A stretch of DNA of 64,000 bases from positions 1 to 64,000 of the forward strand of contig CBDBFU010000005.1 in NCBI GenBank assembly GCA_965205025.1, given 5' to 3'. Numbering within the stretch: position 1 is the stretch's first letter; every line of letters begins with the position of its first letter. This document shows, piece after piece, positions 8,413-48,849 of the stretch. The translations under genes were made by a program, and so were the position numbers. The notes below the pieces were generated by a model. That model was not told the origin of the DNA. It searched no databases and was given only the letters and a program-made list of their open reading frames with translations. Source of the stretch: Candidatus Poribacteria bacterium. Lineage in GTDB: Bacteria > Poribacteria > WGA-4E > WGA-3G.

Positions 8413-9848
8413 ATGCCAACAATTAACTGGTTATTGTTGATGCCAGAATTGGTAATTGTTTCAACACTGTTCATTGTTCTTATCTTTGACATGATTGACT
8501 CACTGTCAAAGAAGGTGCTTGGATGGATAACTATTGTTGGAGCAGCTATTGCACTGTGGGTTTCTATAGACATGCTATTAACAAATGAGGTGGGAACACA
8601 ATTCAGTGGTATGTTTGAGATCGACTCATATTCACTCTTTTTTAATATCATATTTCTGGTTTCTACAATTCTGGTCACACTTATTTCTCTTAGTTATTTG
8701 GGCAGAGACGATAAAAAACAGGGACCATACTACCTCCTGATTCTACTTGCTACATTGGGTATGATGTTAATGGCAGCAGGGAATGAGTTAATAATTGTCT
8801 TTCTTGGTTTAGAACTCATGTCATTATCCCTATATGTCTTAGCAGGATATTTCCGTGAAAGTCCAGCATCAAGTGAAGCAGGAATGAAATACCTGTTACT
8901 TGGTGCATTCGCGAGTGCTTTTTTTCTCTACGGAATTGCACTTATCTATGGAGCAGCTGGAACAACAAGCATTCCTGACATAGCAGATGAACTAACAGAA
9001 AACAGTATATCACCTTTACTATTATCAGGAATGTTCCTACTCATCGTAGGTTTTGGCTTTAAGGTAGCAATTGTCCCATTCCATCAATGGGCACCAGATG
9101 TATATGAAGGAGCACCTACCACAATCGCTGCCTTCATCTCTGCAGGACCAAAAGCTGCTGGTTTCGCAGCATTTATTAGGATATTTATGGAAAGCATTAC
9201 CAGACATGCAACCACAATGGAACGGTGTAATTATCCTACTGGCAATGATTACCAATGACGGGTGGGAATATCATAGCAATTGCACAGACAAACATTAAAC
9301 GGATGTTGGCATACTCAAGTATTGCTCATGCTGGTTACATTCTAATAGGTTTAGCTGCAGCCAATAACGATGGCACAGCGAGTGCAATGTTATATCTGTT
9401 GATTTATTGTGTTATGAATATCGCAGCCTTTGGAGCAGTGATATTAGCAAAGAATGCTGACGGTGAAAGCCTATTAATTACCGATTACGCTGGACTCGGC
9501 TTTCGAAAACCAATACTCGGTCTATTCCTAACGCTTATGTTATTATCTCTCGCGGGATTTCCACCAACTGCCGGTTTCGTAGGAAAATTCTATATCTTTA
9601 AATCTGCTGTCCAGTCTGGTCATGTTTGGCTTGTAATCATAGGAGCAATCAACACTGCAATCTCAGCATTCTACTACTTACGTGTTGTGGTAACTATGTA
9701 CATGAATGAACCAGAAGATGAATTAGAGTTCAACCCATATCCCTCAACATTAATCTTAGGATTAGTCATTGCTTCCATAGTAGTACTCCTAATAGGTATT
9801 CTACCTTCACCTCTACTTAGTACTGTGAAGAATGCAGTCATGATGTAA
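8413..9848 (+). CDS. nuoN: NADH-quinone oxidoreductase subunit N, split by frameshift (probably sequencing indels)
   Basis: EAGMKY, FKVAIVPFHQWAPDVYEGAP, KRMLAYSSIAHAGY. Removing one A near 9192 and one C near 9252 gives a continuous MEALPDMQPQWNGVIILLAMITMTGGN. Confidence 0.93.
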
Positions 9849-24083: not shown

Positions 24084-25289
24084 ATGCATTCCGATTTAGA
24101 AGCGAACACAGAACTAACAGATGAAGAACTCATACGACTTACACAAGACGGGGATGAGTCAGCATTAAAAGAACTAATGTCACGCTTTAGTCCGCATATA
24201 TGGAAAGGGATTCTCGCAAATTCAAGATCACGTTGTGATGCTGAAGAGATACTTATGGATGTTTGGAGGTCTGTTTGGGAAAACATCAAGGGATTACATA
24301 ATCCTGGGAGTCTTAGGGCATGGCTCAGTGTCATTGCTTACAATGCCTGTAAAAGGTACTATAATTCTCGTAAATATTCAAACCATGTCATATTGTGTTC
24401 TGATGTGTTTTTATTAGAAAGAATTAATCAAGACTCCATTACATATTTCAACAAAACAGAACTCCTCCAAGCTATAACTGAAGCAGTACATCAACTACCG
24501 GATAAATTACTACCTATAGCAGAATTATATTATTTGGAACAGTGGAGTATTAAAGAAATCCACAAGGAACTTGGATTAGCAATTGGAACAATCAAGACAA
24601 GATTAAGACAGACACGTGAACTGCTACGGAAAGAGTTCGGTGTCGAACCTAATATAGGGGGAACTATGTTACATAAGCAAGATGAACCTAATCAGATACA
24701 AACAAAAACAAAGGTGATTGGTGTCGGTGCTGCTGGCAGTAATGCAGTCCAACGGATGGAAGAAGTAGGTATGACAAATCTTGAATCCTACGTTGTAAAT
24801 ACTGATCACCAAGTACTTGAAAAGTGCAAATATGGAATACAAATACCAATAGGTGAAAAAACCACTGAAGGACTTGGTTGTAAAGCAAATCCAGAGATTG
24901 GTAAATTGGCTGCAGAAGAGAATATTGAGACTTTGCAAAAAATTGTTGAGAAAACAGAAATAGTATTCATTATTGCAGGGATGGGAGGTGGAACAGGTAC
25001 AGGTGTAGCACCAGTGATTGCCTCTCTATCACAAAAGCAAGGAGCAATCACAGTTGGAGTTGTCACATATCCATTTGATTTTGAAGGAGAATCGTTTCAC
25101 CTACGAGCACAAAAAGGACTTGAAGATTTACGCAAATATACAGATGCAGTTGTTGTAATCCAAAACCAAAGTCTTATCAAGGCTGTGTCTCGTCAAATGA
25201 ATATACGTGAAGCATTCAGTCTCAGTGATAAGGCGATTCTGCATGGTGTAGAATGTTTATCCGGTCTTTACTCCAACATCATGCAGTAA
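24084..25289 (+). CDS. ECF sigma factor fused to a truncated FtsZ GTPase domain
   Basis: Residues ~1-185 show sigma regions 2 and 4 (DAEEILMDVW; SIKEIHKELGLAIGTIKTRL). Residues ~205-401 are FtsZ-like (KVIGVGAAGSNAV, NTD, AGMGGGTGTG, PFDFEG). Confidence 0.9.
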   Translation: MHSDLEANTELTDEELIRLTQDGDESALKELMSRFSPHIWKGILANSRSRCDAEEILMDVWRSVWENIKGLHNPGSLRAWLSVIAYNACKRYYNSRKYSNHVILCSDVFLLERINQDSITYFNKTELLQAITEAVHQLPDKLLPIAELYYLEQWSIKEIHKELGLAIGTIKTRLRQTRELLRKEFGVEPNIGGTMLHKQDEPNQIQTKTKVIGVGAAGSNAVQRMEEVGMTNLESYVVNTDHQVLEKCKYGIQIPIGEKTTEGLGCKANPEIGKLAAEENIETLQKIVEKTEIVFIIAGMGGGTGTGVAPVIASLSQKQGAITVGVVTYPFDFEGESFHLRAQKGLEDLRKYTDAVVVIQNQSLIKAVSRQMNIREAFSLSDKAILHGVECLSGLYSNIMQ

Positions 25290-34725: not shown

Positions 34726-34850
34726 AAAAACAATAAACACGGATATCCGTGCGTGAGTCATGAATGGACTAATGCTGTTCAAAATGGCATGATATAATTG
34801 AACCATGAATTCATACATATAATATATTGAAATGTTCCGAAGGAAATCGT

Positions 34851-36281
34851 ATGATCAGAAATGGTAGATTACGTTTTGCTATCTGCAAATTAGCATTGTT
34901 ATTTATACTTGGATTTATTTACATGACAGTGCAGGAAGTCAATGCCAAAGAGGATGTAGATATGGAAAAAGACAGAATCCAGATTTATAAAGAAAACCCA
35001 CGTTACTGGCAATATAAAGGTCAACCAATACTCCTAATCGGTGGTTCAGTCGAAGATAATTTGTTTCAAATTCCAAACCTAAAAGAACATCTTGAACTCA
35101 TGAAGTCTGTCGGTGGGAACTATGTGCGATCAACGATGGGTTGGAATGATGAAGGAAATATACCCCCTTTCAGAAAAGTTAGTGATAAATATGACCTAAA
35201 TCAATGGGACGAAGAATTCTGGAACCGTTTTCAAAACTTCATTAAATGGACACACGAAATGGATATTATTGTCCAAATTGAAGTATGGGGGACCTTCACC
35301 TATTACCGAGAATCCTGGTTAGCAAATCCATTCAATCCAAAGAACAACACAAATTACACTGAAGAAGAATCAGGGTTACCGACTGTTGTTAATAGTCATC
35401 CTGTAGCTACAAAGAACAACTTTTTCTGGTCTGTACCAAAAGAACGTAACCAGAAGACAGTCCTAAAATATCAAGAGAAATTTGTGGATAAACTCCTCTC
35501 CGAAACACTCCCTTATGGACATATACTCTACTGTATGGACAACGAAACTGCGGTTACTGCTTCTTGGGGAGAATACTGGGCAACCTATATTCAAAAGAAG
35601 GCAGCAGACGCTGGACGAGATGTAGAAACAACTGAAATGTGGGATCCATGGGATCTGTCGGATGAAAAACACAAGGCAACATTCGACCATCCTGAAACCT
35701 ATTCATTCTGTGATATTTCCCAAAATAACCATCAGAAACGTCAGCGACATTGGGACAATGCACAGAAAATTCGAGCACAACTTGATCCTATCCGACCCAT
35801 CAATAATATAAAAATCTACGGTGCAAATGGTGGACGTTTTGGGAATACAAGAGACGGATTAGAGCGATTTTGGCGAAATATCTTCGGTGGTTTTGCGTCT
35901 GCACGTTTCCATCGTCCTGATAGTGGAGTTGGCTTAACCGAAATAGCACAAGCACATTTAAAAAGCATGCGAATGATTACAGACGAAATGGATGTTTTCA
36001 AGTGTGAACCCAACAATAAATTGCTGTCAAACCGAGAAGACAATGAAGCGTATGTAATTGCAAATCCCGGTCAAGAATATGCCATCTACTTTCCTAAAGG
36101 TGGATCAGTTGATCTGAATCTGAGTGTCGGCAAAAAACCAGATGCAAAAACAGTAAAAATCAGATGGCTAAATATAGGTAAAAGTGAATGGAAGCTTGAG
36201 AAAGAAATTCCATTCAAGCATAGCATCACATTATCCCAACCCACAGATTCACATTGGGCAGTATTGGTTCAAGCAAAATAA
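34851..36281 (+). CDS. Glycoside hydrolase-like protein (apiosidase/DUF6298-like) with C-terminal collagen-binding-like domain
   Basis: NPRYWQYKG.PILLIG, YCMDNE, YAIYFP.GG, HWAVLV; hydrophobic N-terminus. Family call is approximate. Confidence 0.6.
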   Translation: MIRNGRLRFAICKLALLFILGFIYMTVQEVNAKEDVDMEKDRIQIYKENPRYWQYKGQPILLIGGSVEDNLFQIPNLKEHLELMKSVGGNYVRSTMGWNDEGNIPPFRKVSDKYDLNQWDEEFWNRFQNFIKWTHEMDIIVQIEVWGTFTYYRESWLANPFNPKNNTNYTEEESGLPTVVNSHPVATKNNFFWSVPKERNQKTVLKYQEKFVDKLLSETLPYGHILYCMDNETAVTASWGEYWATYIQKKAADAGRDVETTEMWDPWDLSDEKHKATFDHPETYSFCDISQNNHQKRQRHWDNAQKIRAQLDPIRPINNIKIYGANGGRFGNTRDGLERFWRNIFGGFASARFHRPDSGVGLTEIAQAHLKSMRMITDEMDVFKCEPNNKLLSNREDNEAYVIANPGQEYAIYFPKGGSVDLNLSVGKKPDAKTVKIRWLNIGKSEWKLEKEIPFKHSITLSQPTDSHWAVLVQAK

Positions 36282-36321: not shown

Positions 36322-36880
36322 CTATAGGCGTTAATCTAAGCATAATGCTCTTCTGTAGGAGGGGATTCCGAACCCCGATTCTTACATTTCTTCAGTGGGA
36401 GAGATTCCGATCTCCGATCTTTCAAGATCCTGTTCCCACCCATTGGTTGGCGGTGAATGCCTAATGAAGATTTATTTATTAATTCGGCAATTATTATTTC
36501 ACTATAACCCGGTAGGTGCGGTTTCCTAACCGCACGAATTCTCGGCAAAACTACCAATTTATTTTTTTAATCTTGATATGACATTCATACCCGGGGAATG
36601 CTAAATAGCATTCATACCCGGGGAATGCTAAATAGCATTCATACCGTTGATTCCTTGATTCCTTGATTCCTTGATTCCTTGATTCGCAGGACGAATGTCT
36701 GTAGAAACACCATACCTCCCCAAAGAACAAGCCCCAGAGGGGCGAAATGTCTGTAGAAACACCATACCTCCAAAAAGAACAAGCCCCAGAGGGGCGAAAT
36801 GTTTGTAGAAAACGGATAAAGCCCCGGGGAATGTCTTAATGACATTCATACCGTTGATTCGAGGGGCGAAATGTCTATTG
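36322..36880. repeat. Mosaic of REP-like hairpins, a 27-bp tandem, TTGATTCC x~5 and a 52-bp tandem repeat
   Basis: Seen directly: 27-bp repeat 36592-36645, octamer 36647-36685, and a 52-bp period from 36694 containing GCCCCAGAGGGGC. Confidence 0.85.
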
Positions 36881-36915: not shown

Positions 36916-37212
36916 GAAATAAGTCGTTTTGAACTTGAGATATTTTCAATATAGACTATACAATCCTCTTGGGTTGGGAACATCTCCATAATCTGAATCA
37001 AATCCATCAGATACTCCGTAATAAGTTGATTTTTCTGACGGATTCTTATACAATATAGATAAGCGAGAACATCACAAAACAACTCGTTTTTTGTGTTCAA
37101 TTAGGGGGTTACAGCCCCCTATTTTCTTATCTCTTATACCATATAAACCCAATCAATACAAGGGATTATCACACTTTTCAAACATTTTACCAAGTCTAAA
37201 ACGACTAATTCC
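36916..37212 (-). mobile_element. Internally deleted IS1595-family-like element
   Basis: Imperfect TIRs GAAATAAGTCGTTTTGAACTTG / CAAGTCTAAAACGACTAATTC. The minus strand from 37007 encodes MDLIQIMEMFPTQEDCIVYIE, resembling the N-terminus of IS1595 transposases, then runs into the TIR. Confidence 0.6.
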
Positions 37213-37331
37213 GTTTGATAAAACTTAGAACAACCCCAGCAGGAATGAAAAATCACATCCATCTTTCTGTTATTATATGTAAATCATAAGATTATTATAC
37301 AACTGACGATAGTATACACATGAAGGAAACT

Positions 37332-37793
37332 ATGGAAGAAAAAACACAGCCAAAAGTTTTCATCGTGCATGGGCATGATGAGGCAGCTAAAGTCTTTGTC
37401 GCCAGGTTCATAGAAAAACTTGATTTTGAGGCAATCATACTTGACGAACAAGCTGGCGGCTTGCAAGCAGTTATTGATAAGTTTGAAGAACAGGTAGAGG
37501 ACATCGTTTTTGCTGTCGTTTTGTTAACTCCTGATGATATTGGCACTTCAATAGCAGAAAAAGACAATCTTAAACCAAGAGCTCGTCAAAATGTCATCCT
37601 TGAACTTGGTTATTTTATCGCTAAATTAGATCGGAATCAAATTTGTCTTCTCTATAAAGAAAGTGTTGAATTTCCATCTGATGTTCGCGGTATATCTTAT
37701 GTGCTTATGGATAATTACGATGGATGGCAATTGAAATTGGCAAGGGAAATGAAGAATGCGAAATTACCTATTGATGCAAATAAACTTTTGTAG
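37332..37793 (+). CDS. Stand-alone TIR-like domain protein (Cap12/PycTIR-type, PF10137-like)
   Basis: KVFIVHGHD, FAVVLLTPDD, RARQNVILELGYF, PSD. Confidence 0.9.
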   Translation: MEEKTQPKVFIVHGHDEAAKVFVARFIEKLDFEAIILDEQAGGLQAVIDKFEEQVEDIVFAVVLLTPDDIGTSIAEKDNLKPRARQNVILELGYFIAKLDRNQICLLYKESVEFPSDVRGISYVLMDNYDGWQLKLAREMKNAKLPIDANKLL

Positions 37794-37957
37794 AAGATAG
37801 GTCCATTCAAAATACTGGGTAAATTGGGTTTGATACTTTCAATAAATTAGTGCTATAATTTAAAAATAAAGTTATGTTTTACGAGTTGTGCTAAATAACT
37901 TTTAGCAACCAATAATTTCACATATATAATAGTTGATATGAATATCCTACATTAGTT

Positions 37958-38104
37958 AAGACTTTCTTTAGTCCCGTAGGGACGGAATGTCTATAGAAAA
38001 CCAATGAAAAACCTAAGTTGAGTCCCGTAGGGACGGAATGTCTATAATAAAAACCAAAATCCGTAAAAACAACAAATACATTTAGTTAACTGGCACAAGT
38101 CGTT
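37958..38104. repeat. Element with two AGTCCCGTAGGGACGGAATGTCTATA units
   Basis: Same organisation and right end (AAATCCGT.AAAACAA...CTGGCA.AAGTC) as 49082-49268. Confidence 0.75.
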
Positions 38105-38171
38105 ATGTTTGATTGATTATAAAAGGGTGTTTTCGTGCTTCAGCACGTCAGCGTGAAATGGAGGAAAGATT

Positions 38172-38636
38172 ATGAATACAGAAACTCGGAGTAAAGTTTT
38201 CATCTCCCATGGGCACGACGAGGAAGCTATTACAACTGTTGCTAAGTTTGTAGAAAACTTGGGTTTAACGGCAACTGTTCTCAACGAACAACCAAAACAC
38301 GGTCTGACGGTTATTGAGTGCCTCGATAAATATGCAGACGACACAGAGTTTGCAATTGCATTGTTGACTCCTGACGATGTTGGTGCCTTAAAAGATGAGG
38401 TAGACCGCCAGCTCAATCCCAGAGCACGCCAGAACGTCATTTTTGAACTTGGCTATTTCATTGGTAAACTGAATCCTAACCGAGTGTGCCTTCTTTATAA
38501 GGAAGGTGTTGAATTACCATCATACATTCCTAACGTAGTCTATGTGCCTATGGATAGTGCAGAGGATTGGAAATTGAAACTTGGTCAAGAGATGCGGAAT
38601 GCAGGATTGCCCATTGATATGAACCGAATCCTATGA
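38172..38636 (+). CDS. Stand-alone TIR-like domain protein (paralogue of 37332-37793)
   Basis: KVFISHGHD, FAIALLTPDD, RARQNVIFELGYF; GGAGG RBS. Confidence 0.9.
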   Translation: MNTETRSKVFISHGHDEEAITTVAKFVENLGLTATVLNEQPKHGLTVIECLDKYADDTEFAIALLTPDDVGALKDEVDRQLNPRARQNVIFELGYFIGKLNPNRVCLLYKEGVELPSYIPNVVYVPMDSAEDWKLKLGQEMRNAGLPIDMNRIL

Positions 38637-38717
38637 ATTGATCCTTAAACCTGAGGTTAATTGGGAAAAGATAGTAGTGTTTTGTGAAATCACTAGTGTG
38701 AAAATGGAGAAAACGTT

Positions 38718-39701
38718 ATGAATGAGAAAAAGATTGCAGATCCGTTGAGAAATATATGGGATATTGCAGTCCAGTACAATGATATAAGAAGTTCATTTCA
38801 GAGTCAACAAAAACAATTAGAAAATGCATGCAGGCCTCCTGAAGCCGCAACGAATTTTTCTTATGTAGGAGAAGCAAGAGCGATAAAGGATTTGTTTGGA
38901 GGGGCAAGTGTGGCAAAGGATTTGTTAGGAGAAGCAAGAGCGATAAAGAAAACACATCTTGCGGTTGTATCAAATAAATTTGATGGTCTCTTCAAACCTT
39001 TACCAGAAATGTCAAATATATTTGAGGACCTCTTAAAACCTATCCCAGGCATGCCAAATAAGATTCATAATACATTAAAACATTCTGAAATCATTGAAAA
39101 AGATTCTCCTCTTGCAAGGTTATTGTCAACAAACACAATTCTCCCTGTTGTTTCCAGTCTCAATTTCCCTAATATCATTATCCCGCGCCCAACTGACAAC
39201 TCAATTGTCCCTCCAGTACATGAGGAACGTCATACGCCACCACCGGAAACAGATTCTACAATCATCACCGACGAAGTACCTATAAAAAAAAGAATTTTTA
39301 TTGGACATGGACATTCTGATTGCTGGATAGAACTTAGAGATTTTATTGAGAAGGACTTAGGGTTATCTCATGACGAATTTAATCGTGTTTCAACACCCGG
39401 CTTATCCACATTAGAACGCCTTCGACAAATGAAAACCGAAGCTGGTATGGCATTTTTAATCATGACTGCTCAAAATGAATATGCTGATGGCACGCTACAT
39501 GCCAGCAGTAATGTAATTCATGAGATAGGACTGTTTCAAGGTAAACTTGGTTTTAAAAAAGCAATCATTTTGCTTGAAGAGGGTTGTGAAGAATTTAGCA
39601 ACATTCACGGACTCGGTCAGATACGGTTCGCGAAAGGAAATATAAAGGCAGCATTTCAAGAGATCCGTGAAGTCTTGGAACGGGAAAGAATCATTTTATA
39701 G
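38718..39701 (+). CDS. TIR-like domain protein with ~185 aa N-terminal extension
   Basis: C-terminal IFIGHGH, AFLIMTA, NVIHEIGLFQG.LGF, EEFSNIHGL; N-terminal GEARAIK repeat and Pro-rich linker. Confidence 0.85.
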   Translation: MNEKKIADPLRNIWDIAVQYNDIRSSFQSQQKQLENACRPPEAATNFSYVGEARAIKDLFGGASVAKDLLGEARAIKKTHLAVVSNKFDGLFKPLPEMSNIFEDLLKPIPGMPNKIHNTLKHSEIIEKDSPLARLLSTNTILPVVSSLNFPNIIIPRPTDNSIVPPVHEERHTPPPETDSTIITDEVPIKKRIFIGHGHSDCWIELRDFIEKDLGLSHDEFNRVSTPGLSTLERLRQMKTEAGMAFLIMTAQNEYADGTLHASSNVIHEIGLFQGKLGFKKAIILLEEGCEEFSNIHGLGQIRFAKGNIKAAFQEIREVLERERIIL

Positions 39702-39757
39702 TCTATTTAGATCCAATAATACCATTGTCATAAATTTAATTTCTTGTAAGGAAACCC

Positions 39758-41377
39758 ATGCCAACCCTCGACTTCAAAGGCAAACAATTCATATACGCAC
39801 ACCACCTCACCGTACCCTTCCACAAACCAGAGATAGACCCAGAAAAATCCCTAACAGGCGAAAACCCTCCATCACTTGACGACAACCTAATCATTCACGG
39901 CGACAATCTACACGCCTTAAAAGCACTCCTTCCCAGATACGCTGGCAAAATCAAATGTATCTATATTGACCCACCTTATAACACTGGCAACGAAAATTGG
40001 GTTTACAACGACAACGTCAACAGTCCGATGATGCAAGCATGGCTTGAGAAAAACAGTCCAATTGACATTGAAGATTTAGAACGTCATGATAAATGGTTGT
40101 GTATGATGTGGCCTCGGTTACATTTATTGCATGAGCTACTCGCTGATGATGGCGTAATTTTTATCTCAATTGATGATAATGAACAGCATCGTTTGCGTTT
40201 GTTAATGGATGATATTTTTGGGGCAGAAAATTTTGTTACTAATATAATTTGGCAGAAAAAATTTAGTCCACAAAATGATGCCAAATATTTTTCCGATAAT
40301 CATGATTTTGTGGTTTGCTACGCAAAGGATAAAGAAACATGGCGTCCGATTCTTCTACCTCGAACCGAAAAGCACAACAAGCGATATTCTAATCCTGACA
40401 ACGACCCGCGGGGACCATGGAGTTCAAGTGGATTAGATGTTAAAACCTATCAAGAAGAATATGATTATCCGATCACTACACCATCAGGTCGAATTGTTAA
40501 TCCACCAACAAGTAGGTGCTGGAGGTGCAGCAAAGAGAAATTTGATGAACTTATAAATGACAATAGGATATGGTTTGGCGAAGAGGGTAATAATGTTCCT
40601 CGCGTAAAGCGTTTTCTATCAGAAGTTAAACAAGGCATTACACCCTTAACTGTATGGCTGCACGAGGACGTTGGGCATACCCAGAGTGCAACACAAGGAC
40701 TCAACAAAATTGGTGTTGCCTTCTCAAACCCAAAACCGCATACACTGATAAAGCACATATTACAAATAGGTGCTGACCCGGATTCTATCATTCTGGACTC
40801 CTTTGCTGGTAGCGGCACCACTGCTCACGCAGTCCTTGCACTCAACAAAGAAGATGGTGGTAACCGAAAGTTTATACTCGTTGAATGTGAAGACTACGCA
40901 GACAACATCACTGCTGAACGTGTCCGTCGCGTCATAAAAGGTGTTGAAAATGCAAAAGATGAAAACCTGCGGGAAGGTCTCGGTGGTTCGTTCACCTACT
41001 GCACACTCGGTGAACCGATTGACACTGAAGGCATGCTCACAGGCGATACACTACCTACCTACGTAACATTAGCACATTATATTGCCTGGATAGCAACTGG
41101 TAGTAAACTTGAAGTTAATGCACAACAAAAGGATTATTGCTTCGGTGAAACAAAGGATATCCGCTTTTATCTCATCTATGAACCAACACTTGAATTCTTA
41201 GAAAGTAATAAGTCAGCACTTGACGCATCCCTTGCTGAGCAGATAGCTGAGGAATGCAAAGCGACAGGCAAAAAAGCCTACGTCTATGCGTCTCATAAGT
41301 TTATGAGTCAAAAAGAACTTACACCGTTGGGGATTACATTCTGTCAACTCCCCTATAGCATCTATCAAATCGCGTAA
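39758..41377 (+). CDS. mod: Type III R-M adenine methyltransferase (Mod)
   Basis: IYIDPPYN precedes DSFAGSGTT (beta class); MPTLDFKGK N-terminus; res lies downstream. Confidence 0.92.
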   Translation: MPTLDFKGKQFIYAHHLTVPFHKPEIDPEKSLTGENPPSLDDNLIIHGDNLHALKALLPRYAGKIKCIYIDPPYNTGNENWVYNDNVNSPMMQAWLEKNSPIDIEDLERHDKWLCMMWPRLHLLHELLADDGVIFISIDDNEQHRLRLLMDDIFGAENFVTNIIWQKKFSPQNDAKYFSDNHDFVVCYAKDKETWRPILLPRTEKHNKRYSNPDNDPRGPWSSSGLDVKTYQEEYDYPITTPSGRIVNPPTSRCWRCSKEKFDELINDNRIWFGEEGNNVPRVKRFLSEVKQGITPLTVWLHEDVGHTQSATQGLNKIGVAFSNPKPHTLIKHILQIGADPDSIILDSFAGSGTTAHAVLALNKEDGGNRKFILVECEDYADNITAERVRRVIKGVENAKDENLREGLGGSFTYCTLGEPIDTEGMLTGDTLPTYVTLAHYIAWIATGSKLEVNAQQKDYCFGETKDIRFYLIYEPTLEFLESNKSALDASLAEQIAEECKATGKKAYVYASHKFMSQKELTPLGITFCQLPYSIYQIA

Positions 41378-41421
41378 CTCTCATTCCTGTCTTGAATTTT
41401 ATTGTTTTCTACTCTATAATT

Positions 41422-41720
41422 ACTATAGTTTGGACAATTATTATTCATGAGACAGTTGAGTTTCTAATGATAAGTCTGTTTTGAGAGTTGGACATATCAG
41501 TGGATTCCTACAAGAATACTGCACTCCAGCGGAGTGCTATGTCTATAGAAAACATGATCGGTACGTTCTTGCACTCCAGCGGAGTGCTATGTGTCGTAAT
41601 CTTCATACTGTTCTGCTGGAAAAATGAGTGTTACATTTTATATTTTGTGTCAGAATTTAGTACAGATGAAGTAAACCGATTTCTTATTGAGTTCACACAT
41701 GAAAGTGTCCAAACTATAGT
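41422..41720. mobile_element. 299-bp MITE with perfect 15-bp TIRs and ATAATT target duplication
   Basis: ACTATAGTTTGGACA...TGTCCAAACTATAGT, with ATAATT at 41416-41421 and 41721-41726. The empty site is present in the paralogous copy near 42851. Confidence 0.9.
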
Positions 41721-41756
41721 ATAATTTAGTCAAGTGTTTACTGAAGGAGTACAAAA

Positions 41757-42176
41757 ATGAAGAAGATTTTACTCTTAGCACTCTGTTTTCTTATCTCAAC
41801 GACTTGTACATTTGCAGAACTCTCACAATCCGATTTTGAGAAGATCCAATCTATTGTTGACAAATCTGTTGAAAAGGTTGAAAAGTCTATTGAAAAATCT
41901 GAAGAACAGATTAAGGTATACGTGGATCTCAAAATCAACGCTTTGGACGGGAAGTTGAGCGGAGAAATCAAATCATTAGACGGACGATTGAATCAATTAT
42001 TCTTGCTTGTAATTGTGTTAATTGCTTTGATTGCTGTGGCTGTGGGAATGCCACATATCCTTGTTGCAAGGCAGGGAAAAGAGATACAGTCACAAAACCA
42101 ACGCATTGAGGCGTTGCAGCAAGAGATTGAAGCAATGCGACACGAAATGAATGAAAGAAACATCAGTACATCATAA
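41757..42176 (+). CDS. Signal peptide + coiled coil + TM + coiled coil protein (copy 1)
   Basis: AAGGAG RBS, signal peptide, one LDGKLSGEIKS unit, hydrophobic LFLLVIVLIALIAVAVG. Confidence 0.8.
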   Translation: MKKILLLALCFLISTTCTFAELSQSDFEKIQSIVDKSVEKVEKSIEKSEEQIKVYVDLKINALDGKLSGEIKSLDGRLNQLFLLVIVLIALIAVAVGMPHILVARQGKEIQSQNQRIEALQQEIEAMRHEMNERNISTS

Positions 42177-42245
42177 TACCTTAAGGCATTACTACGTTGG
42201 AAAGCAGAACGTCAATGGCATATTGAGAATCATAAACACATAAAA

Positions 42246-42335
42246 ATGGAACTGAAAGACTACCAACAACAAGCATTAGGGACATTAGACCGCTACCTTG
42301 ATGCACTAAAAGAAGCACGTCAACAAATAGAAGAA
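42246..42335 (+). pseudogene. Duplicated 5' fragment (30 codons) of res
   Basis: MELKDYQQQALGTLDRYLDALKEARQQIEE, near-identical to 43444-43533, then homology ends abruptly. Confidence 0.85.
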
Positions 42336-42344
42336 CTTGTCACA

Positions 42345-42727
42345 TCTGTTTTCTTATCTCAACGACTTGTGCATTTGCAGAACTCTCACAATCAGATTTT
42401 GAGAAGTTTCAATCTATTGTTGAAAAGACTGTTGAAAAATCTGAAAAACAGATTAAGGAATACATTGATCTCAAAATTGATGCCGTTAATGCAAGAATTG
42501 ATGCTATTGATACGAAAATTGATTCGAGAATTGATTCCGTTAATACGAGAATTGATTCCGTTGAAAAATCTGTTGGTCGTAACTTCTACCTAATTATAGT
42601 CACGTTTATTCTAATTGTGGTGGCTGTTGGTATTCCGCAGGCAATCATCGCAATACAAAGTAAGAAATATGATAAATTAGTTGAAGATGTTGAGATGTTA
42701 AAACAGCAACGAATTGTAAGTTCGTGA
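42345..42727 (+). pseudogene. 5'-truncated third paralogue of the coiled-coil membrane protein
   Basis: Frame reads CFLISTTCAFAELSQSDF...IDAVNARIDAIDTKIDSRIDSVNTRIDSV...FYLIIVTFILIVVAVGIPQ...RIVSS* with no start codon. Confidence 0.75.
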
Positions 42728-42888
42728 AATCTACTTATACCATGTAGTGAATGTAAACCGATACAACTACTTATCGCTTTGCCAACTCCCTATAGTATCT
42801 ATCAAATCGCGTAACTCTCATTCCAGTCTTGAATTTTATTGTTTTCTACCCTATAATTTAGTCAAGTGTTTACTGAAGGAGTACAAAA

Positions 42889-43374
42889 ATGAAGAAGATT
42901 TTACTCTTAGCACTCTGTTTTCTTATCTCAACGACTTGTGCATTTGCGGAACTCTCACAATCAGATTTTGAGAAGTTCCAATCTATTGTTGACAAATCTG
43001 TTGAAAAGGTTGAAAAGTCTATTGAAAAATCTGAAGAACGGATTAAGGAATACGTGGATCTCAAAATCAACGCTTTGGACGGGAAGTTAAGCGGAGAAAT
43101 CAAAGCATTAGACGAGAAGTTAAGCGGAGAAATCAAAGCATTAGACGAGAAGTTAAGCGGAGAAATCAAAGCATTAGATGGACGGTTGAATCAATTATTT
43201 TTACTTGTGATTGCGTTAATTGCTTTGATTGCTGTGGCTGTGGGAATGCCACATATCCTTGTGGCAAGGCAGGGAAAAGAGATACAATCACAAAACCAAC
43301 GCATTGAGGCGTTGCAGCAAGAGATTGAAGCAATGCGACACGAAATGAATGAAAGAAACATAAGTACATCTTAA
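42889..43374 (+). CDS. Signal peptide + coiled coil + TM + coiled coil protein (copy with three 11-aa repeats)
   Basis: Near-identical to 41757-42176 plus two extra 33-bp units (three units at 43078-43176). Confidence 0.82.
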   Translation: MKKILLLALCFLISTTCAFAELSQSDFEKFQSIVDKSVEKVEKSIEKSEERIKEYVDLKINALDGKLSGEIKALDEKLSGEIKALDEKLSGEIKALDGRLNQLFLLVIALIALIAVAVGMPHILVARQGKEIQSQNQRIEALQQEIEAMRHEMNERNISTS

Positions 43375-43443
43375 TACCTTAAGGCATCACTACGTTGGAA
43401 AGCAGAACGTCAATGGCATATTGAGAATCATAAACACATAAGA

Positions 43444-46092
43444 ATGGAACTGAAAGACTACCAACAACAAGCATTAGAGACATTAGACCGCTACCTTGAT
43501 GCACTAAAAGAAGCACGTCAGCAAATAGAAGAATTCGCTGCACTTGACCCCAATACACTTCCACCAGTTTTGAGACAGCAATCTGCTGCCTTAGCCAACG
43601 CAGCGGCGGATTTCCCGCGTGTCGCGTGGGAAAGTTTACGCGAAAAATCTGGGTTACCGGGTGTGCCAAATGAAAATGGGGAGAACCATATTCCAGAATA
43701 TATCTCACGTGATGCTGCTTCTGGTGAACCAATCCCGCATGTCTGTCTAAAAGTGCCAACTGGTGGGGGAAAGACGTTGTTAGGTGTTGAGGCAGTACGA
43801 CGACTCAAAATCGGTACAGGATTTCTGCTCTGGATTGTCCCAACGAAAGCCATCTATTCACAAACGCGGGATGCATTTCGCAATCAAGAACACCCTTACC
43901 GACAAATCTTGGATCGAGCTTCTGGTGACCGAGTTAAACTCCTTGAAAAAGACGACAGATTTACAAAGCAAGATGTTGAGAATCACCTCTGTGTGATGCT
44001 TCTGATGCTACCCTCCGCAAACCGAGAAAAAAACAAAGAATTTCTCAAAATCTTCCGTGATAGCAGCGGTTATGACTCCTTCTTCCCTATTGAAGACGAT
44101 ATCAGAAAGCATCAGGCATTATCGGAAAAACACCACGACCTTGAGACAGTAAAACCCGGTGAACCAGGACAGATACGTGGCATGTTCGCAGCAAATCCTG
44201 CAGATAGACTGATTAAGCAGAGTCTCTTTAATGTCTTAAAGTTGATAAGACCAACAGTAATTTTAGACGAAGCACACAAGGCTTACGGGAACAAAAATGT
44301 TGAAAACAATCGGGAGTTTGTGAAAGCAGTTAACCGCCTGAATCCCAGCTTTGTGTTGGAGTTATCTGCTACACCACAGCTCGGTATTAGCAACATCCTT
44401 GTCAATATATCAGGCACAGCACTTAAAGAGGAGGAGATGATTAAAATCCCGATTCAACTCCGCAATTATCCAAACTCCACTTGGAAATATACACTTGCCA
44501 AAGCAAAGACAGAACGGGATGAATTGGAAGAAGCAGCTAAGCAGTTTCAGCAAGAAGAAAATCGTTACATCCGTCCTATTGCTGTAATTCGGGTTGATCG
44601 TACCGGTAAAAAGCAGCGTGATGGCGTTAAGGTGCATGCAGAAGATGCACGCGACGAACTCATCAAAGTACTCGGTGTACCAGAGGAGCATATTAAAGTC
44701 AAATCTTCTGAACAAGATGAACTCGCTGGTGTGGATCTGCTCAGTCCTTTCTGCCCTGTCCGCTACATTATCACAAAAGATGCCCTAAAAGAGGGATGGG
44801 ATTGTCCGTTTGCATATCAATTGGCACTACTTGATAACACCACAGCACAAACCGCTATGACGCAGCTGATCGGTAGAGTCATGCGTCAACCGCATGCACG
44901 AGCAACCAATCTAACGGAATTAGATACTTGTTATATCTACTGCTACAATCAGAAAGTAAGCAATGCTGTCAATAACGTTAAAAAAGGGTTAGAAGCGGAA
45001 GGGTTAACAGGACTTGCAGAATACGTTGAAAGCACAGATGCGGAGCGTGAAAATAAAAGTATCCTACGTAGGAAGAAATACCGTGAGATGGATATTTTTC
45101 TGCCACAAGTACTGCACAAACGGGGACGTAGTTGGGACATGCTAAATTATGAGCGTGACATTCTCAGTGCAGTTGATTGGCGTCAACTCGAAGCAGTTGA
45201 ACCTGTAAATTTAGATGACCAAGAACTCTTACAAGAAATCCGCGCGACCATCCATTTGCAAGATCATGACGAAACAGAGAAAATCATAGGAGAAAGTGCC
45301 TCTCAAAATTTGGAAATATCGTTTTTTGTTCGACGTTTGAACGATGTGATTCCGAACCCTTGGCAAGCGTCTCGGATTGTAAAAGCCACCTTGCAAGCGT
45401 ATCGGGAACAAGGCATTGATGAGAACAAGCTATTTGCAAATCGGTTGTATCTCTCTGAAGTTTTGAAAAAGAAACTCAGCACACAGATAGAGACTCTCGC
45501 TGAAACTATTTTCCGAGAGAAACTTGAAAATAATAAAATTAGGTTTAGTCTTGAAACAGATGTCGCATTGAATTTTGAGTTAGAAAAAACAATTGAAGTT
45601 AATATCTCAAAAGATGCAAAACGTCTAACCCGTTCAGATGCAAGTCCCCTGCAGCTCAACCTCTTTAACCCAGTGTATGAAGCAGAATTCAACAATTTGG
45701 AGAAAGATTTCGCGCTTTATTTAGATAAAAAAGAGGCAATTCAGTGGTGGCATCGTATCGCCGCAAGGCAAGGATATTATTTGCAAGGTTGGCGTCGTGA
45801 CCGTGTTTATCCTGACTTTATCGCCTGTGTGCAAGGAAACAAGAAGGGACAACAACGTCTACTGATTCTTGAAACGAAAGGACAACACCTTGAAGGTAAC
45901 AGCGATACTACCTACAAAAAAGAACTTATCAAGACATTAGAATCAGCGTATAAAAACGCAACAGAATACGGAACGATGGAAGCTGCCGGTCCCAATGATA
46001 AAACAATGTCATTCCGCATGTTGCTTGAGGATACTTGGCGCGAGACAGTGAATGAAACGATAGATGATATTTATACGACAGAAAATAGTTGA
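43444..46092 (+). CDS. res: Type III restriction endonuclease subunit (Res)
   Basis: PTGGGKT, DEAH, SAT, EGWD, QLIGRVMR helicase motifs; C-terminal YPDF...ETKG nuclease motif. Confidence 0.92.
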   Translation: MELKDYQQQALETLDRYLDALKEARQQIEEFAALDPNTLPPVLRQQSAALANAAADFPRVAWESLREKSGLPGVPNENGENHIPEYISRDAASGEPIPHVCLKVPTGGGKTLLGVEAVRRLKIGTGFLLWIVPTKAIYSQTRDAFRNQEHPYRQILDRASGDRVKLLEKDDRFTKQDVENHLCVMLLMLPSANREKNKEFLKIFRDSSGYDSFFPIEDDIRKHQALSEKHHDLETVKPGEPGQIRGMFAANPADRLIKQSLFNVLKLIRPTVILDEAHKAYGNKNVENNREFVKAVNRLNPSFVLELSATPQLGISNILVNISGTALKEEEMIKIPIQLRNYPNSTWKYTLAKAKTERDELEEAAKQFQQEENRYIRPIAVIRVDRTGKKQRDGVKVHAEDARDELIKVLGVPEEHIKVKSSEQDELAGVDLLSPFCPVRYIITKDALKEGWDCPFAYQLALLDNTTAQTAMTQLIGRVMRQPHARATNLTELDTCYIYCYNQKVSNAVNNVKKGLEAEGLTGLAEYVESTDAERENKSILRRKKYREMDIFLPQVLHKRGRSWDMLNYERDILSAVDWRQLEAVEPVNLDDQELLQEIRATIHLQDHDETEKIIGESASQNLEISFFVRRLNDVIPNPWQASRIVKATLQAYREQGIDENKLFANRLYLSEVLKKKLSTQIETLAETIFREKLENNKIRFSLETDVALNFELEKTIEVNISKDAKRLTRSDASPLQLNLFNPVYEAEFNNLEKDFALYLDKKEAIQWWHRIAARQGYYLQGWRRDRVYPDFIACVQGNKKGQQRLLILETKGQHLEGNSDTTYKKELIKTLESAYKNATEYGTMEAAGPNDKTMSFRMLLEDTWRETVNETIDDIYTTENS

Positions 46093-46298: not shown

Positions 46299-46808
46299 AT
46301 GAAGTTAAAAAAATAAAATAGGTAATTTGGACCCAGAGCTGGTAGGTGCGGTTTCCTAACCGTACTATAGGCGTCAATTTAAGGAGAAGTACGCTATAAA
46401 TTTCAGGTCGGTAGGTTCGGTTTCCTAACCGAACCGGGTTTGTTCCAATTGCGTTCATAAAGTTTTTCGCGAAGGATCCAGTGCGATTAGGAAATCGCAC
46501 TATTAGCGTCAATTTAGACTATGATTTATTGGTTTTGAGTCCCGTAGGGACGGAATGTCTATAGAAGTGGTTATCACCAATATCCCAAGCCCCAGCGGGG
46601 CGAAAGGTTTGTAGAAAACGTAATAAACACAAAACACTAAGCCCCAGCGGGGCGAAAGGTGTATCTAAATTGATGCCTATGGTGCGATTAGGAAATCGCA
46701 CCTACCGGCCTGGGAAAACCACTAAATTGACGCCTATGGTGCGGTTTCCTAACCGTACCGGATTCTACAAGAAACTGGAAATTACCCGAATAAATTTTTT
46801 AACTTCAT
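46299..46808. mobile_element. Three-layer nested MITE/REP structure
   Basis: Outer TIR ATGAAGTTAAAAAA; middle 46367-46737 (TIR ATAGGCGTCAATTTA); inner ~46502-46680 (same TIR family). Confidence 0.8.
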
Positions 46809-47391
46809 GAGGGATGATATGTCTATAGAAAAATGTATATCAACCTCCTGCACTCCAGCGGAGTACAAGGACAACGAAATCAAAAAAGGACAAATTTAGA
46901 ATTTTTTAATTTTTAAATTTAGAATGCTAAGAAGCCAGTCTATGACAGGGGTTACAGGGGTAATTTACACCAATTTCAAAGTTACACCATGTAACGAAAA
47001 GTGTAACTTTTTTCATATTTTCTGTCTATGAATGAGACTTAAACCAATAACGACAAACAAAAACTATAAGAAATTGATGACAATTAAAAGATTTAACACT
47101 TATAACGAAATATCAAATTCTCCTAAGAATACACCTCTATTTGGAGACATTGGATGTCTAAAAAAGAAAAGTCAACTAAGACACAAAATGACACTTTTTA
47201 GAATTTTTATAATTTCATTTCAAATTGCTATAAACCCTGTCTATAACAGCGTTTATAGCCATAATTTACACCAATTTTAATGTCACACCGTGTGACAAAA
47301 AGTGTAACTTTTTTCATATTTTACGACTTCGGAAAATACAAGAGTTAAACGGAAACAACTAAAAACTATAGTATTATTTATTGAGTTTCTT

Positions 47392-48849
47392 ATGTTAAGA
47401 CTTTTGCAACATCATATAGTTATCAAATATTTTATATCGGTCTTATTCATTATAATGTTCGTTTGCATAACGCAAACAAGCAATACAAATGCCATAGAAG
47501 AATCAGAGATGAAAAAAAACAGAATCCAGATTTACAAAGAAAACCCACGTTACTGGCAATATAAAGGTAAACCCATTCTGCTTATCGGCGGTTCTGTTGA
47601 TGATAATTTGTTTCAGATACCGAATCTCAAAGAGCATCTTGAATTATTGAAATCAGTCGGTGGAAATTATGTTAGGTCTACGATGGGATGGACTGAGGCG
47701 GTCGATGTGCCACCCTTCAAAAAAGTCGGTGATCTGTATGACTTAAATCAGTGGAACGATGAATTTTGGACACGTTTTCAAAACTTTATCAGATGGACTC
47801 ACGAAATGGATATTATCGTCCAAATTGAAGTCTGGGCAACTTTCAACTATTATAGAGATTATTGGGAGGTCAACCCATTCAATCCAAAAAATAATAGCAA
47901 TTACTCCACAGAGGAGACAGAATTACCTACTGCCGTCAATAGCCATCCAAGTGCAGCGAAAAATGACTTCTTCCGGTCAGTTCCCAAAAAGCGAAATCAG
48001 GAAATTGTCCTAAAATATCAACAAAAATATGTGGATAAACTTCTTTCTGAGACGCTACCTTATGGACACATACTCTACTGTATGGACAACGAAACGGCTG
48101 TTACACCAGCATGGGGGGAATACTGGTCAACGTATATCAAGAATCGAGCAACCGAAGTTGGACGCGGTGTTGAAACAACTGAGAGTTGGAATCCATGGGA
48201 AATTGACCATGAACAACATCTGAATACAAAGGATCACCCAGAAATATATTCATTCTGTGATATATCACAGAATAATATGCAGAAACGGCAAACACATTGG
48301 GACAACGCACAGAAATACAGGGCAGAACTCTCACCGATCCGTCCCATGAATAATGTTAAGATCTACGGTGCTGATACCGGGAAATACGGTACAACACGAA
48401 ATGGGTTAGAACGGTTCTGGCGTAATATCTTTGGTGGACTTGCATCAGCACGGTTCCACCGTCCTCCCAACGGACTCGGTTTGACTAAGACAGCACAAGC
48501 GAGTCTCAAGAGTATGAGAATGATTACCGACGAAATCGATGTTTTTAACTGTGAACCTAACAACGAATTGCTATCCAACCGTGAAGATAATGAAGCATAT
48601 ACCTTAGCAAATCCCGGTAAAGAATATGCTTTATATTTCCCAAAAGAGGGTTCGGTTGATCTCGATTTGAGTGTTAATAGACAGAAGGATGCCAAAACAG
48701 TTAATTTAAGATGGCTAAATATAAGTAAAGGCGAATGGAAAAAAGAACAGGAAATTCCGTTCAGTGATAGCATAACGTTGTCTCCACCCACTGAATCACA
48801 TTGGGCAGTCTTAGTTAAGTTTACCCAAGTTGCTACTAAAGGATTTTGA
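47392..48849 (+). CDS. Glycoside hydrolase-like protein (close paralogue of 34851-36281)
   Basis: Long identical stretches, e.g. RIQIYKENPRYWQYKG, LLSETLPYGHILYCMDNETAVT, GLERFWRNIFGG. Confidence 0.65.
   Translation: MLRLLQHHIVIKYFISVLFIIMFVCITQTSNTNAIEESEMKKNRIQIYKENPRYWQYKGKPILLIGGSVDDNLFQIPNLKEHLELLKSVGGNYVRSTMGWTEAVDVPPFKKVGDLYDLNQWNDEFWTRFQNFIRWTHEMDIIVQIEVWATFNYYRDYWEVNPFNPKNNSNYSTEETELPTAVNSHPSAAKNDFFRSVPKKRNQEIVLKYQQKYVDKLLSETLPYGHILYCMDNETAVTPAWGEYWSTYIKNRATEVGRGVETTESWNPWEIDHEQHLNTKDHPEIYSFCDISQNNMQKRQTHWDNAQKYRAELSPIRPMNNVKIYGADTGKYGTTRNGLERFWRNIFGGLASARFHRPPNGLGLTKTAQASLKSMRMITDEIDVFNCEPNNELLSNREDNEAYTLANPGKEYALYFPKEGSVDLDLSVNRQKDAKTVNLRWLNISKGEWKKEQEIPFSDSITLSPPTESHWAVLVKFTQVATKGF

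Follow-up and report, generated by a model that had tools for sequence, protein, structure and literature searches.

The stretch of DNA analysed here (the window) comprises 64,000 nucleotides of a contig from a Candidatus Poribacteria bacterium (CBDBFU010000005.1, positions 1 to 64,000). It carries three genes for proteins with a TIR domain (TIR1, TIR2 and TIR3), followed by the mod and res genes of a type III restriction-modification (R-M) system. These genes form an island of ~10 kb on the + strand (Table 1), which is set between two housekeeping blocks, with NADH dehydrogenase, extracytoplasmic function (ECF) sigma factor and ABC transporter genes on the upstream side and the ATP synthase operon on the downstream side. 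An earlier sequence-only reading of the window had drawn attention to three co-oriented TIR genes ending 56 bp before a type III mod-res pair, and this was borne out by the open reading frames (ORFs), the PF10137 matches and the PADLOC type III models: the stop codon of TIR3 and the start of mod are 56 nt apart. The arrangement recurs in many related sponge-associated bacteria.

The TIR genes and the type III operon of the window

All three TIR proteins belong to the family PF10137, with E-values of 1.1e-36, 2e-33 and 6.2e-18 and bit scores of 125.8, 115.3 and 65.4 for TIR1, TIR2 and TIR3, respectively, all above the gathering cut-off of 24.7. TIR1 and TIR2 are 53% identical, TIR3 shares 23-30% identity with either of them, and its PF10137 domain occupies residues 192-305, which agrees with the initial description of two stand-alone paralogues and a third protein with an N-terminal extension. 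The likely start of TIR1 is the second ATG at 37332, giving a protein of 153 aa, the length of most homologues. The glutamate of the NVxxE(L/I)G motif, also pointed out in that description, is kept in all three proteins (NVILELG, NVIFELG and NVIHEIG) and aligns with the glutamate of NVVFEFG in the solved CAP12 chains 9lmq and 7un8. It is retained in 81 of the 87 TIR ORFs found in Poribacteria loci, the exceptions being four fragments and two ORFs with arginine. The TIR genes are under purifying selection; the median pairwise ratio of nonsynonymous to synonymous substitution rates (dN/dS) was 0.11 for the TIR1-type, 0.16 for the TIR2-type and 0.22 for the TIR3-type genes.

The best PADLOC matches were to the candidate single-gene system PDC-S35 (2.9e-64 for TIR1 and 6.2e-61 for TIR2), not to the effector models of the cyclic-oligonucleotide-based anti-phage signalling system (CBASS) or of the pyrimidine cyclase system for antiphage resistance (Pycsar). 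The matches of TIR1 and TIR2 are confined to the C-terminal ~150 of the 264-278 positions of the PDC-S35 models (115-277; for TIR1, 126-277 of 278), and both proteins lack the N-terminal helical domain of PDC-S35; long forms encoded in related loci match PDC-S35 over its full length, and TIR3 matches it between model positions 112 and 245 (2.2e-12). To call the module undescribed, as was done at first, was thus too strong for TIR1 and TIR2, even if PDC-S35 is not named in the main text of the paper on the PADLOC candidates (10.1101/2024.01.29.577857). A full-text literature search found no paper naming PDC-S35, and literature searches found none on a linkage of PF10137 to type III R-M or on TIR arrays of this kind; a term search of PMC11350192 returned nothing on TIR/R-M linkage.

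The absence of a cyclase, a sensor or ThsA, noticed in the sequence-only reading, held for the whole window: among the other 41 ORFs of at least 100 aa there were no cyclase, STING, SAVED, cyclic nucleotide monophosphate (cNMP)-binding, SIR2, SLOG or Macro domains. The three TIR proteins themselves had no match to PF00027, nor to PF08937 or the ThsB models (Pfam, PADLOC), and scored 25-38 bits against the NCBIfam Cap12 models, whose cut-off is 450 bits. They are not members of a dispersed set of paralogues, a possibility that had been considered: the genome has four PF10137 matches, the three described here and one protein on contig C14. This fourth protein (C14:273549-273905; L003:1021-1944, the prefix L denoting our numbered loci) is a 307-aa cNMP-binding and TIR protein of the PycTIR type, which carries PF00027. 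Genes of a class like this one, with an open frame of ~305 aa, are found in many other genomes of Poribacteria at sites apart from the listed Res matches.

The family to which the window proteins belong is large, with 4814 relatives at E ≤ 0.001 among proteins of 86-275 aa. Outside Poribacteria the relatives are nearly all encoded by single genes and are 250-320 aa long, with an N-terminal extension preceding the TIR domain. The extensions fall into at least nine sequence families, of which the largest (N1) has 41 members in several phyla; neither N1 of the long forms nor residues 1-190 of TIR3 had a Pfam match. The structural model of a long form encoded beside mod in L014 (296 aa, N1 and TIR; predicted local distance difference test score, pLDDT, 85.9) shows an N-terminal helical bundle, with helices at residues 23-42, 48-72 and 107-134, then the TIR domain. 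The best structural match of its TIR domain was TIR-STING (Foldseek E 3.7e-6; VIA Z 14.0, root-mean-square deviation 2.9 over 130 residues), and the SpbK filament 9phb was also among the fold matches; these searches were dominated by the TIR domain and scarcely probed the fold of N1. An Atlas feature search with residues 1-145 of the same protein returned unnamed clusters only (0.83-0.85, under the lead level). TIR1 starts with MEEKTQPK and its orthologues with MEEKTLPK, a stretch with which N1 of the long forms begins, and immediately after it comes the TIR core. Since the first residues of N1 are kept and the core comes at once, TIR1 looks like a long form from which N1 has been deleted.

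TIR3 has a different make-up. It is a mosaic, its TIR domain grouping with those of L011, L022 and L034 and its N-terminus with those of L009 and L164. In the AlphaFold model of the window protein the TIR domain is folded with moderate confidence, and pLDDT is below 50 over residues 71-188.

Mod and Res constitute a full-length type III R-M pair. Mod matches PF01555 (6e-39) and the PADLOC model MTase_III PDLC03644 (2.6e-175 over positions 1-540 of 542), its translation holds the motifs DPPY and FAGSGTT, and its central region is variable across 33 homologues. Res matches PF04851 (7e-14) and REase_III PDLC03653 (9.9e-243 over 1-878 of 883) and holds the motifs GGGKT, DEAH and PDF...ETKG. The spacer between the two genes (41351-43530) is a complex tandem duplication (repeats D1, D2 and D10), the duplicated unit of which consists of the last 27 nt of mod with the sequence downstream, a coiled-coil gene and the first ~100 nt of res. 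The first 32 amino acids encoded by the duplicate res fragment match the N-terminus of Res, and the fragment carries direct repeats D1, D2, D4, D7 and D10; a further copy of the coiled-coil gene, the third in all and a partial one, is at 42345-42477. Ten of the 50 loci L009-L058 (see below) have a gene for a homologue of the coiled-coil protein, with signal peptide, coiled coil and transmembrane segment, in the mod-res spacer.

The promoter-like site with the best score lies in the gap between TIR1 and TIR2 (37830-37859; TTGATA-18-TATAAT with TG, 11 of 12 matches). No terminator-like site was found on the + strand from TIR2 to the start of mod, and the sole such site up to the stop codon of mod is a weak one within mod at 40141. 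Both kinds of site are mere matches to a consensus. A contig from a public sequencing run spans 38534-39929 (the end of TIR2, TIR3 and into mod) with 0 differences, thus the junction between TIR3 and mod is not peculiar to the assembly, with the caveat that the run is possibly the source sample of the window.

Table 1. Coordinates of the genes and repeat clusters of the island in the window
Feature	Position	Strand	Description
Left-border REP-like repeat cluster	36350..36860		short palindromes; families D3, D8, D9, D11; found by motif scan
TIR1	37320..37793	+	stand-alone CAP12/Pycsar-type TIR; 157 aa from first ATG
Repeat pair in 378-nt TIR1-TIR2 gap	37968..38053		two copies, family D3; high read depth
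TIR2	38172..38636	+	second stand-alone TIR, 154 aa
TIR3	38718..39701	+	327 aa; ~190-aa N-terminal extension and divergent TIR domain
mod	39758..41377	+	type III methyltransferase gene
CC1	41757..42176	+	gene for small protein with signal peptide, coiled coil and transmembrane segment, between mod and res; no Pfam family
res 5' fragment	42246..42593	+	duplicate, ~32 codons, runs into out-of-frame partial copy of coiled-coil gene
CC2	42889..43374	+	second copy of coiled-coil gene; two extra 33-nt repeats; direct repeats D1, D2, D5
res	43444..46092	+	type III restriction endonuclease/helicase gene
Right-border REP-like repeat cluster	46340..46835		families D3, D8, D9, D12; inverted pairs I1-I4

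Linkage of the TIR family to type III operons

The sample used for the phylum consisted of 176 species-level Candidatus Poribacteria genomes, 96 of which contain PF10137 and 110 the Res family of the window. The 50 Res loci ranking directly behind that of the window (L009-L058) were retrieved, together with ten of those that come next (L059-L068); G114:C20, where Res is cut at the contig start, was left out. In three loci of the first set (L018, L046 and L048) the contig ends at mod. Of the 47 informative loci, 26 have TIR genes either upstream of mod and on the strand of Res or between mod and res, and 21 have no TIR; the co-occurrence of PF10137 with type III genes, which the sequence-only reading had proposed to check, is thus a conserved linkage. 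Only remnants of TIR genes are left in two of the 26 (L019 and L054). None of the nine informative loci of L059-L068 has a TIR gene beside mod. A long TIR gene is found directly 5' of mod-res in a second Res clade as well (Res ~47% identical, other families of the phylum), namely in eight of nine loci, which were chosen because both genes had already been shown on one contig; in the ninth, L155, it lies 4.8 kb upstream.

The gap between the TIR gene and mod has a median of 42 bp and does not exceed 100 bp in 26 of 33 loci. By our own tally, in which G065:C200 and G095:C47 were judged from coordinates only, 38 of the 176 genomes have a cluster of TIR and type III genes. The linkage is conserved in Poribacteria and is far above chance: with 196 PF10137 matches over ~970 Mb, ~0.2 would be expected within 10 kb upstream of the 215 Res matches on the right strand, an estimate which gives the order of magnitude and is not a test, the related genomes being non-independent.

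The arrays have a regular anatomy. One TIR gene is present in 20 of the 33 loci, two in five, three in seven and six in one. In multi-gene arrays the order is fixed, a TIR1-type gene coming first and a TIR2-type gene second, and the third encodes either a TIR3-type protein or a long form with N1 and TIR. The TIR1-type proteins are 75-96% and the TIR2-type proteins 72-88% identical to their window orthologues, and TIR2 orthologues are always second in the arrays. Proteins of the TIR3 type were seen only beside mod, in six of six cases (L011, L015, L019, L022, L034 and the window). Some loci have additional genes: in L041 (6361-8504) genes for type IV Cas7 and Cas5 lie between the TIR array and res, and TnpB/Cas12f-like genes are inserted in or beside the cassettes of L034 (7295-8392) and L044 (4476-5678).

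A pattern scan gave 79 loci, 68 of them from outside Poribacteria according to their titles and 67 of these with a called TIR ORF. We scanned 128 of the 146 ORFs that are immediate neighbours; the 18 left out were 16 from Poribacteria loci (ten from loci covered separately and six from the unscanned L071, L119 and L125), one from L105 and one giant ORF of L122. In 63 of the 67 non-Poribacteria loci no type III gene adjoins the TIR gene, which is almost always a single long form. The neighbours include toxin-antitoxin genes, AbiU, AbiV, integrases, ThsB, prokaryotic Argonaute (pAgo), type I HsdR, type IIG enzymes and a Dam-like methyltransferase.

A second architecture, in which the TIR gene follows mod, was found in L088 (6588-12258), L102 (6947-15329), L132 (7107-13930) and L167 (7634-14875). 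The TIR gene is preceded by a gene for a large type III Mod of another family (PDLC03632, 1e-145 to 1e-176) in L088 (Nitrospira), L102 (Caldilineaceae) and L132 (Spirochaetia); this mod gene either ends 61 bp before the start of TIR or overlaps it. The res gene lies two or three genes beyond TIR in three of the four loci (L102, L132 and L167), and none is shown in the Nitrospira locus. The genes between TIR and Res are MNT-like or AriA/PD-T4-4-like, and the Res proteins of L102 and L132 (ResIII and PD-ExK) are 68% identical to each other. In L123 (Psychrobacter) a divergently oriented type III pair adjoins the TIR gene. The linkage of mod to TIR is rare in Chloroflexota: in a sample of 401 genomes a PDLC03632-type Mod was found in 59 (a tally that includes the unpublished genomes G351 and G405, which no other result uses) and PF10137 in 35, and the two genes are adjacent in the seed genome and in G294 only, the order in G294 being mod, TIR, MNT-like gene and res.

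Turnover of the TIR genes and the surroundings of the island

The TIR pair can persist without an R-M system. Intact TIR1-TIR2 pairs with no mod or res within at least 9 kb were found in six loci (L006, L007, L158, L160, L161 and L165), where their neighbours mostly have no PADLOC match. Three further loci that seemed to have TIR genes only (L162, L163 and L164) still hold fragments of Mod or Res, showing that the R-M genes decayed beside surviving TIR genes. In L160 (7093-8274) and L164 (13359-14540), which have the same genomic context, a gene two positions away from the TIR array encodes a 393-aa protein whose N-terminus matches the PycTIR models in their cNMP-binding part. In the TIR-negative L035 (5587-6768) this gene lies two genes upstream of mod; it may be a mere flanking housekeeping gene.

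TIR genes have been gained and lost repeatedly. On a Res tree of 60 rows the presence of TIR requires 15 changes, at least ten of which are forced by well-supported branches. The loci occur in many flank contexts, and TIR-positive and TIR-negative loci are mixed in five of the seven contexts with more than one locus. When TIR-positive and TIR-negative sister loci were compared, Res was 87-95% identical and the N-termini of Mod 82-96%. The identity of the mod-adjacent TIR domain does not follow that of Res (Spearman 0.11 in 22 loci; 157 of 2000 permutations were as high), whereas Mod and Res identities give a Spearman coefficient of 0.64. In L031 and L039 Res is 98% identical and TIR only 53%, while in L049 and L153 TIR is 85% identical and Res only 47%. 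TIR and Res identities being uncorrelated, the TIR genes must have moved from one cassette to another and come to lie in the same place again. A history of one ancestral fusion followed only by co-inheritance was rejected for the same reason.

What occupies this place when TIR is missing was surveyed in the three ORFs 5' of mod of the 21 TIR-less loci. SIR2-APAZ with a short pAgo was found in L010 (4047-8265), L012 (3461-7679) and L013 (6402-10635), CBASS in L057 (4661-8481; E1-E2, cyclase and patatin) and in L020 (1419-5642; E2, cyclase, patatin and CapH/CapP), and a ThsB-like TIR in L050 (6127-7228). L020 is the closest Res relative of the window and has the same left flank. These systems lie on the mod strand, with the exception of the cyclase, patatin and E2 genes of L020. 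In L029, L036 and L044 the slot is taken by genes for a methyltransferase, a helicase or a TnpB-like protein, and in the remaining TIR-less loci no defence gene recognised by PADLOC was found in the three ORFs. The 5' end of the operon thus receives self-contained cargo, mostly systems for abortive infection, and TIR arrays are the commonest cargo. This pattern is more in line with independent modules in one operon than with a TIR that depends on the R-M enzyme.

The island of the window is bordered by GC-rich palindromic families resembling repetitive extragenic palindromic (REP) sequences or miniature inverted-repeat transposable elements (MITEs), which also fill intergenic gaps (36350-36860, 37968-38053, 41520-41554 and 46340-46835). 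The right-border cluster holds five of the seven matches to the repeat motif in the window (motif scan). In public runs, read depth in repeat-bearing bins is 10 to 1000 times that of neighbouring bins and short-read contigs break there; over the left-border cluster (36350-36860) it is 10-100 times that of the flanks. The 27-nt inverted pair I4, which flanks the island, is not read as a pair of transposon ends; it belongs to a multi-copy repeat family. No tRNA genes were found in the window and no integrase domains among its ORFs. Two paralogous genes of 484 and 485 aa (~75% identical) flank the island at 34827-36281 and 47392-48849; they have no Pfam family, and one has a weak putative collagen-binding domain. 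In L007 and L159 these paralogues are adjacent and the TIR pair comes after them, and in L021 the second paralogue directly precedes TIR1. Either the island or one of the paralogues has moved.

Two further observations concern the rest of the window. An ORF of 401 aa (24084-25289) is an unusual fusion of ECF sigma-70 regions 2 and 4 (residues 37-180) to a tubulin/FtsZ GTPase domain (residues 209-367, 5.6e-40). The neighbouring ORFs 8413-9258 and 9255-9848 each hold half of a Proton_antipo_M domain; they could be a split or frameshifted subunit of NADH dehydrogenase or of an antiporter, or the result of an assembly error.

Possible role of the TIR arrays and comparison with known systems

We think it rather probable that the TIR genes are autonomous abortive-infection modules with NAD+ glycohydrolase (NADase) activity, carried as exchangeable cargo by the type III operon. 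The three CAP12/Pycsar-type TIRs of the candidate family PDC-S35 would be NADase effector domains without a nucleotide sensor, encoded in the variable 5' slot of the mod-res operon and probably co-transcribed with it. The cassette would then have two layers. Mod and Res would cut unmodified incoming DNA, and the TIRs would serve as an autonomous abortive-infection backup, in which a phage cue leads to TIR oligomers or filaments, as in TIR-STING, and these deplete NAD+. TIR NADases of the PF10137 family appear to be switched on by oligomerisation, for TIR-STING on the basis of solved filaments, going by the titles of the structure entries. For the family as a whole, we presume that the three-helix domain N1 reads the cue; in the window the N-terminal extension of TIR3 would be the likely part with a trigger-sensing or autoinhibitory role, and TIR1 and TIR2 would be a conserved sensor-less pair which assembles with each other and with TIR3.

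Several points weigh against this interpretation. A sensor-less TIR pair with an intact glutamate ought to be either inert or toxic when alone; as noted above, such pairs also persist without R-M genes. TIR3 of the window departs from the consensus of its own subfamily in two conserved motifs, having TAQN for TAED and ASSN for RAREN, and judging from these differences its catalysis may be impaired. The family PDC-S35 is so far just a computational candidate, and no public RNA run that covers window positions 37200-43500 is listed. The specificity of the placement could also mean more than co-location: in Poribacteria the TIR genes always precede mod and have its orientation, in three other phyla they come after mod, and following swaps they have become associated with the operon again.

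The last point bears on the possibility that the TIRs guard the R-M enzyme. They would be kept monomeric and inactive by Mod or Res and monitor these, or be activated by a stalled Res, so that an anti-restriction factor or another phage block of restriction would release them to form NADase filaments and deplete NAD+, much as PrrC is released from EcoprrI. Such an arrangement would account for the specific position on the same strand with its short gap to mod, for the association of different TIR types with different Res clades, for the same family directly after an unrelated type III mod elsewhere, with res downstream in most of those loci, and for the restriction of TIR3-type proteins to the neighbourhood of mod. 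If true, such a guard would have arisen on two or more occasions, in the order TIR-mod-res in Poribacteria and in the order mod-TIR-res in Chloroflexota and Spirochaetia. We nevertheless consider it unlikely. Intact TIR pairs under purifying selection survive without R-M, family members outside Poribacteria mostly stand alone, the high identity of Mod and Res in TIR-positive and TIR-negative sisters leaves no visible adaptation of the enzyme, and systems known to be autonomous (SIR2-pAgo and CBASS) occupy the same slot elsewhere. Taken together, the comparative evidence leans against a specific wiring of the TIRs to the R-M enzyme. A weaker form of the wired arrangement would be that TIR1 and TIR2 make up a self-regulating two-TIR switch, which needs no ligand sensor.

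It is still less likely, in our opinion, that the TIR genes are hitch-hikers, i.e. selfish or metabolic passengers or inactive remnants without an anti-phage role, at a horizontally moving locus that tolerates insertions. Their frequent gain and loss, the decaying loci L019, L054 and L163, the TIR-only arrays among genes without PADLOC match and the REP-like repeats and TnpB-like insertions common in these loci would fit such a role. The low dN/dS values and the retained glutamate speak against it, as do the order of the TIR1-TIR2 pair, which is conserved across many species, and the company of the family outside the phylum, where neighbours include toxin-antitoxin, Abi, R-M, pAgo and ThsB genes and integrases.

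Least of all do we expect the TIRs to be producers of a signal, one option of the sequence-only reading; each TIR would then sense a different phage and make a cyclic ADP-ribose (cADPR)-type signal for an effector encoded elsewhere. The tandem of two to six paralogous genes does resemble multi-ThsB Thoeris loci, and the available text of 10.64898/2025.12.03.692087 mentions a type III Thoeris that has several TIRs, but PF10137 is the effector clade of TIR-STING and PycTIR and not the ThsB clade, PF08937 is unmatched, and no gene for SIR2, SLOG, Macro or another known effector lies in the window or accompanies the arrays in a conserved manner.

If the TIR arrays are indeed autonomous modules carried as cargo, they are an abortive-infection candidate borne by an R-M operon, which as such is an already known kind. 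New are the ordered arrays of sensor-less TIRs, the two architectures in which they are joined to type III R-M and the exchangeable slot found throughout the phylum. The PADLOC PDC candidates were, as a set, defined by their embedding in bacteriophage exclusion (BREX), defence island system associated with restriction-modification (DISARM) and type I R-M loci, and type III systems were outside that analysis, as far as the available text goes (10.1101/2024.01.29.577857). The present results extend this guilt by embedding to type III R-M, with a 5' slot for interchangeable TIR arrays, SIR2-pAgo, CBASS and ThsB-like genes. They also lend comparative support to the candidate PDC-S35, in the form of purifying selection, a kept catalytic residue and recurrent attachment to R-M. 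A biochemical question follows from them: how is a CAP12-type TIR pair without a recognisable sensor domain kept off, and how is it switched on? Without the duplication the cassette is ~5.5 kb, a size that can be cloned and tested.

It is useful to compare the arrays with systems that are known. PDC-S35 gave the best PADLOC matches: all three window TIRs match its models, and their long relatives beside mod have both its helical domain and its TIR domain. TIR1 and TIR2 differ from it in having no N-terminal domain, and it is a single-gene candidate, whereas the genes described here form ordered arrays of two to six attached to a type III system. CAP12 or TIR-STING (7un8, 9lmq) belongs to the same Pfam family, is the best match in sequence and fold and has the aligned glutamate, but the window has neither a STING domain nor a gene for a cGAS/DncV-like nucleotidyltransferase (CD-NTase). 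PycTIR has a TIR of the same family, and the fourth PF10137 protein of the genome, on contig C14, shares its layout of cNMP-binding and TIR domains; the window TIRs, by contrast, have no cNMP-binding domain, and there is no cyclase gene in the window.

Thoeris is similar in having several TIR genes in tandem, but the window contains no ThsA and no match to the ThsB family, and PF10137 is a TIR of the effector type. SpbK of B. subtilis and TirC are, like the window family, small proteins with an N-terminal region and a TIR domain, which act by oligomerisation. TirC, an amoebal protein, is described in the available text of 10.64898/2026.04.30.722052 as a small sensor-less PF10137 TIR that is a potent NADase, oligomerises and is toxic if unregulated or in other hosts; it differs from the window TIRs in being eukaryotic, and SpbK differs in belonging to another TIR family. 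A systematic survey of TIRs, according to its available text, excluded stand-alone TIRs (10.64898/2025.12.03.692087).

A parallel in gene organisation is PrrC, an anticodon nuclease physically masked by the type Ic R-M enzyme EcoprrI (10.1101/2024.01.29.577857). In both cases an abortive-infection effector is encoded in or beside an R-M operon and on the same strand. Unlike PrrC, TIR arrays of the window type survive without R-M and sit in a slot whose content is exchangeable.

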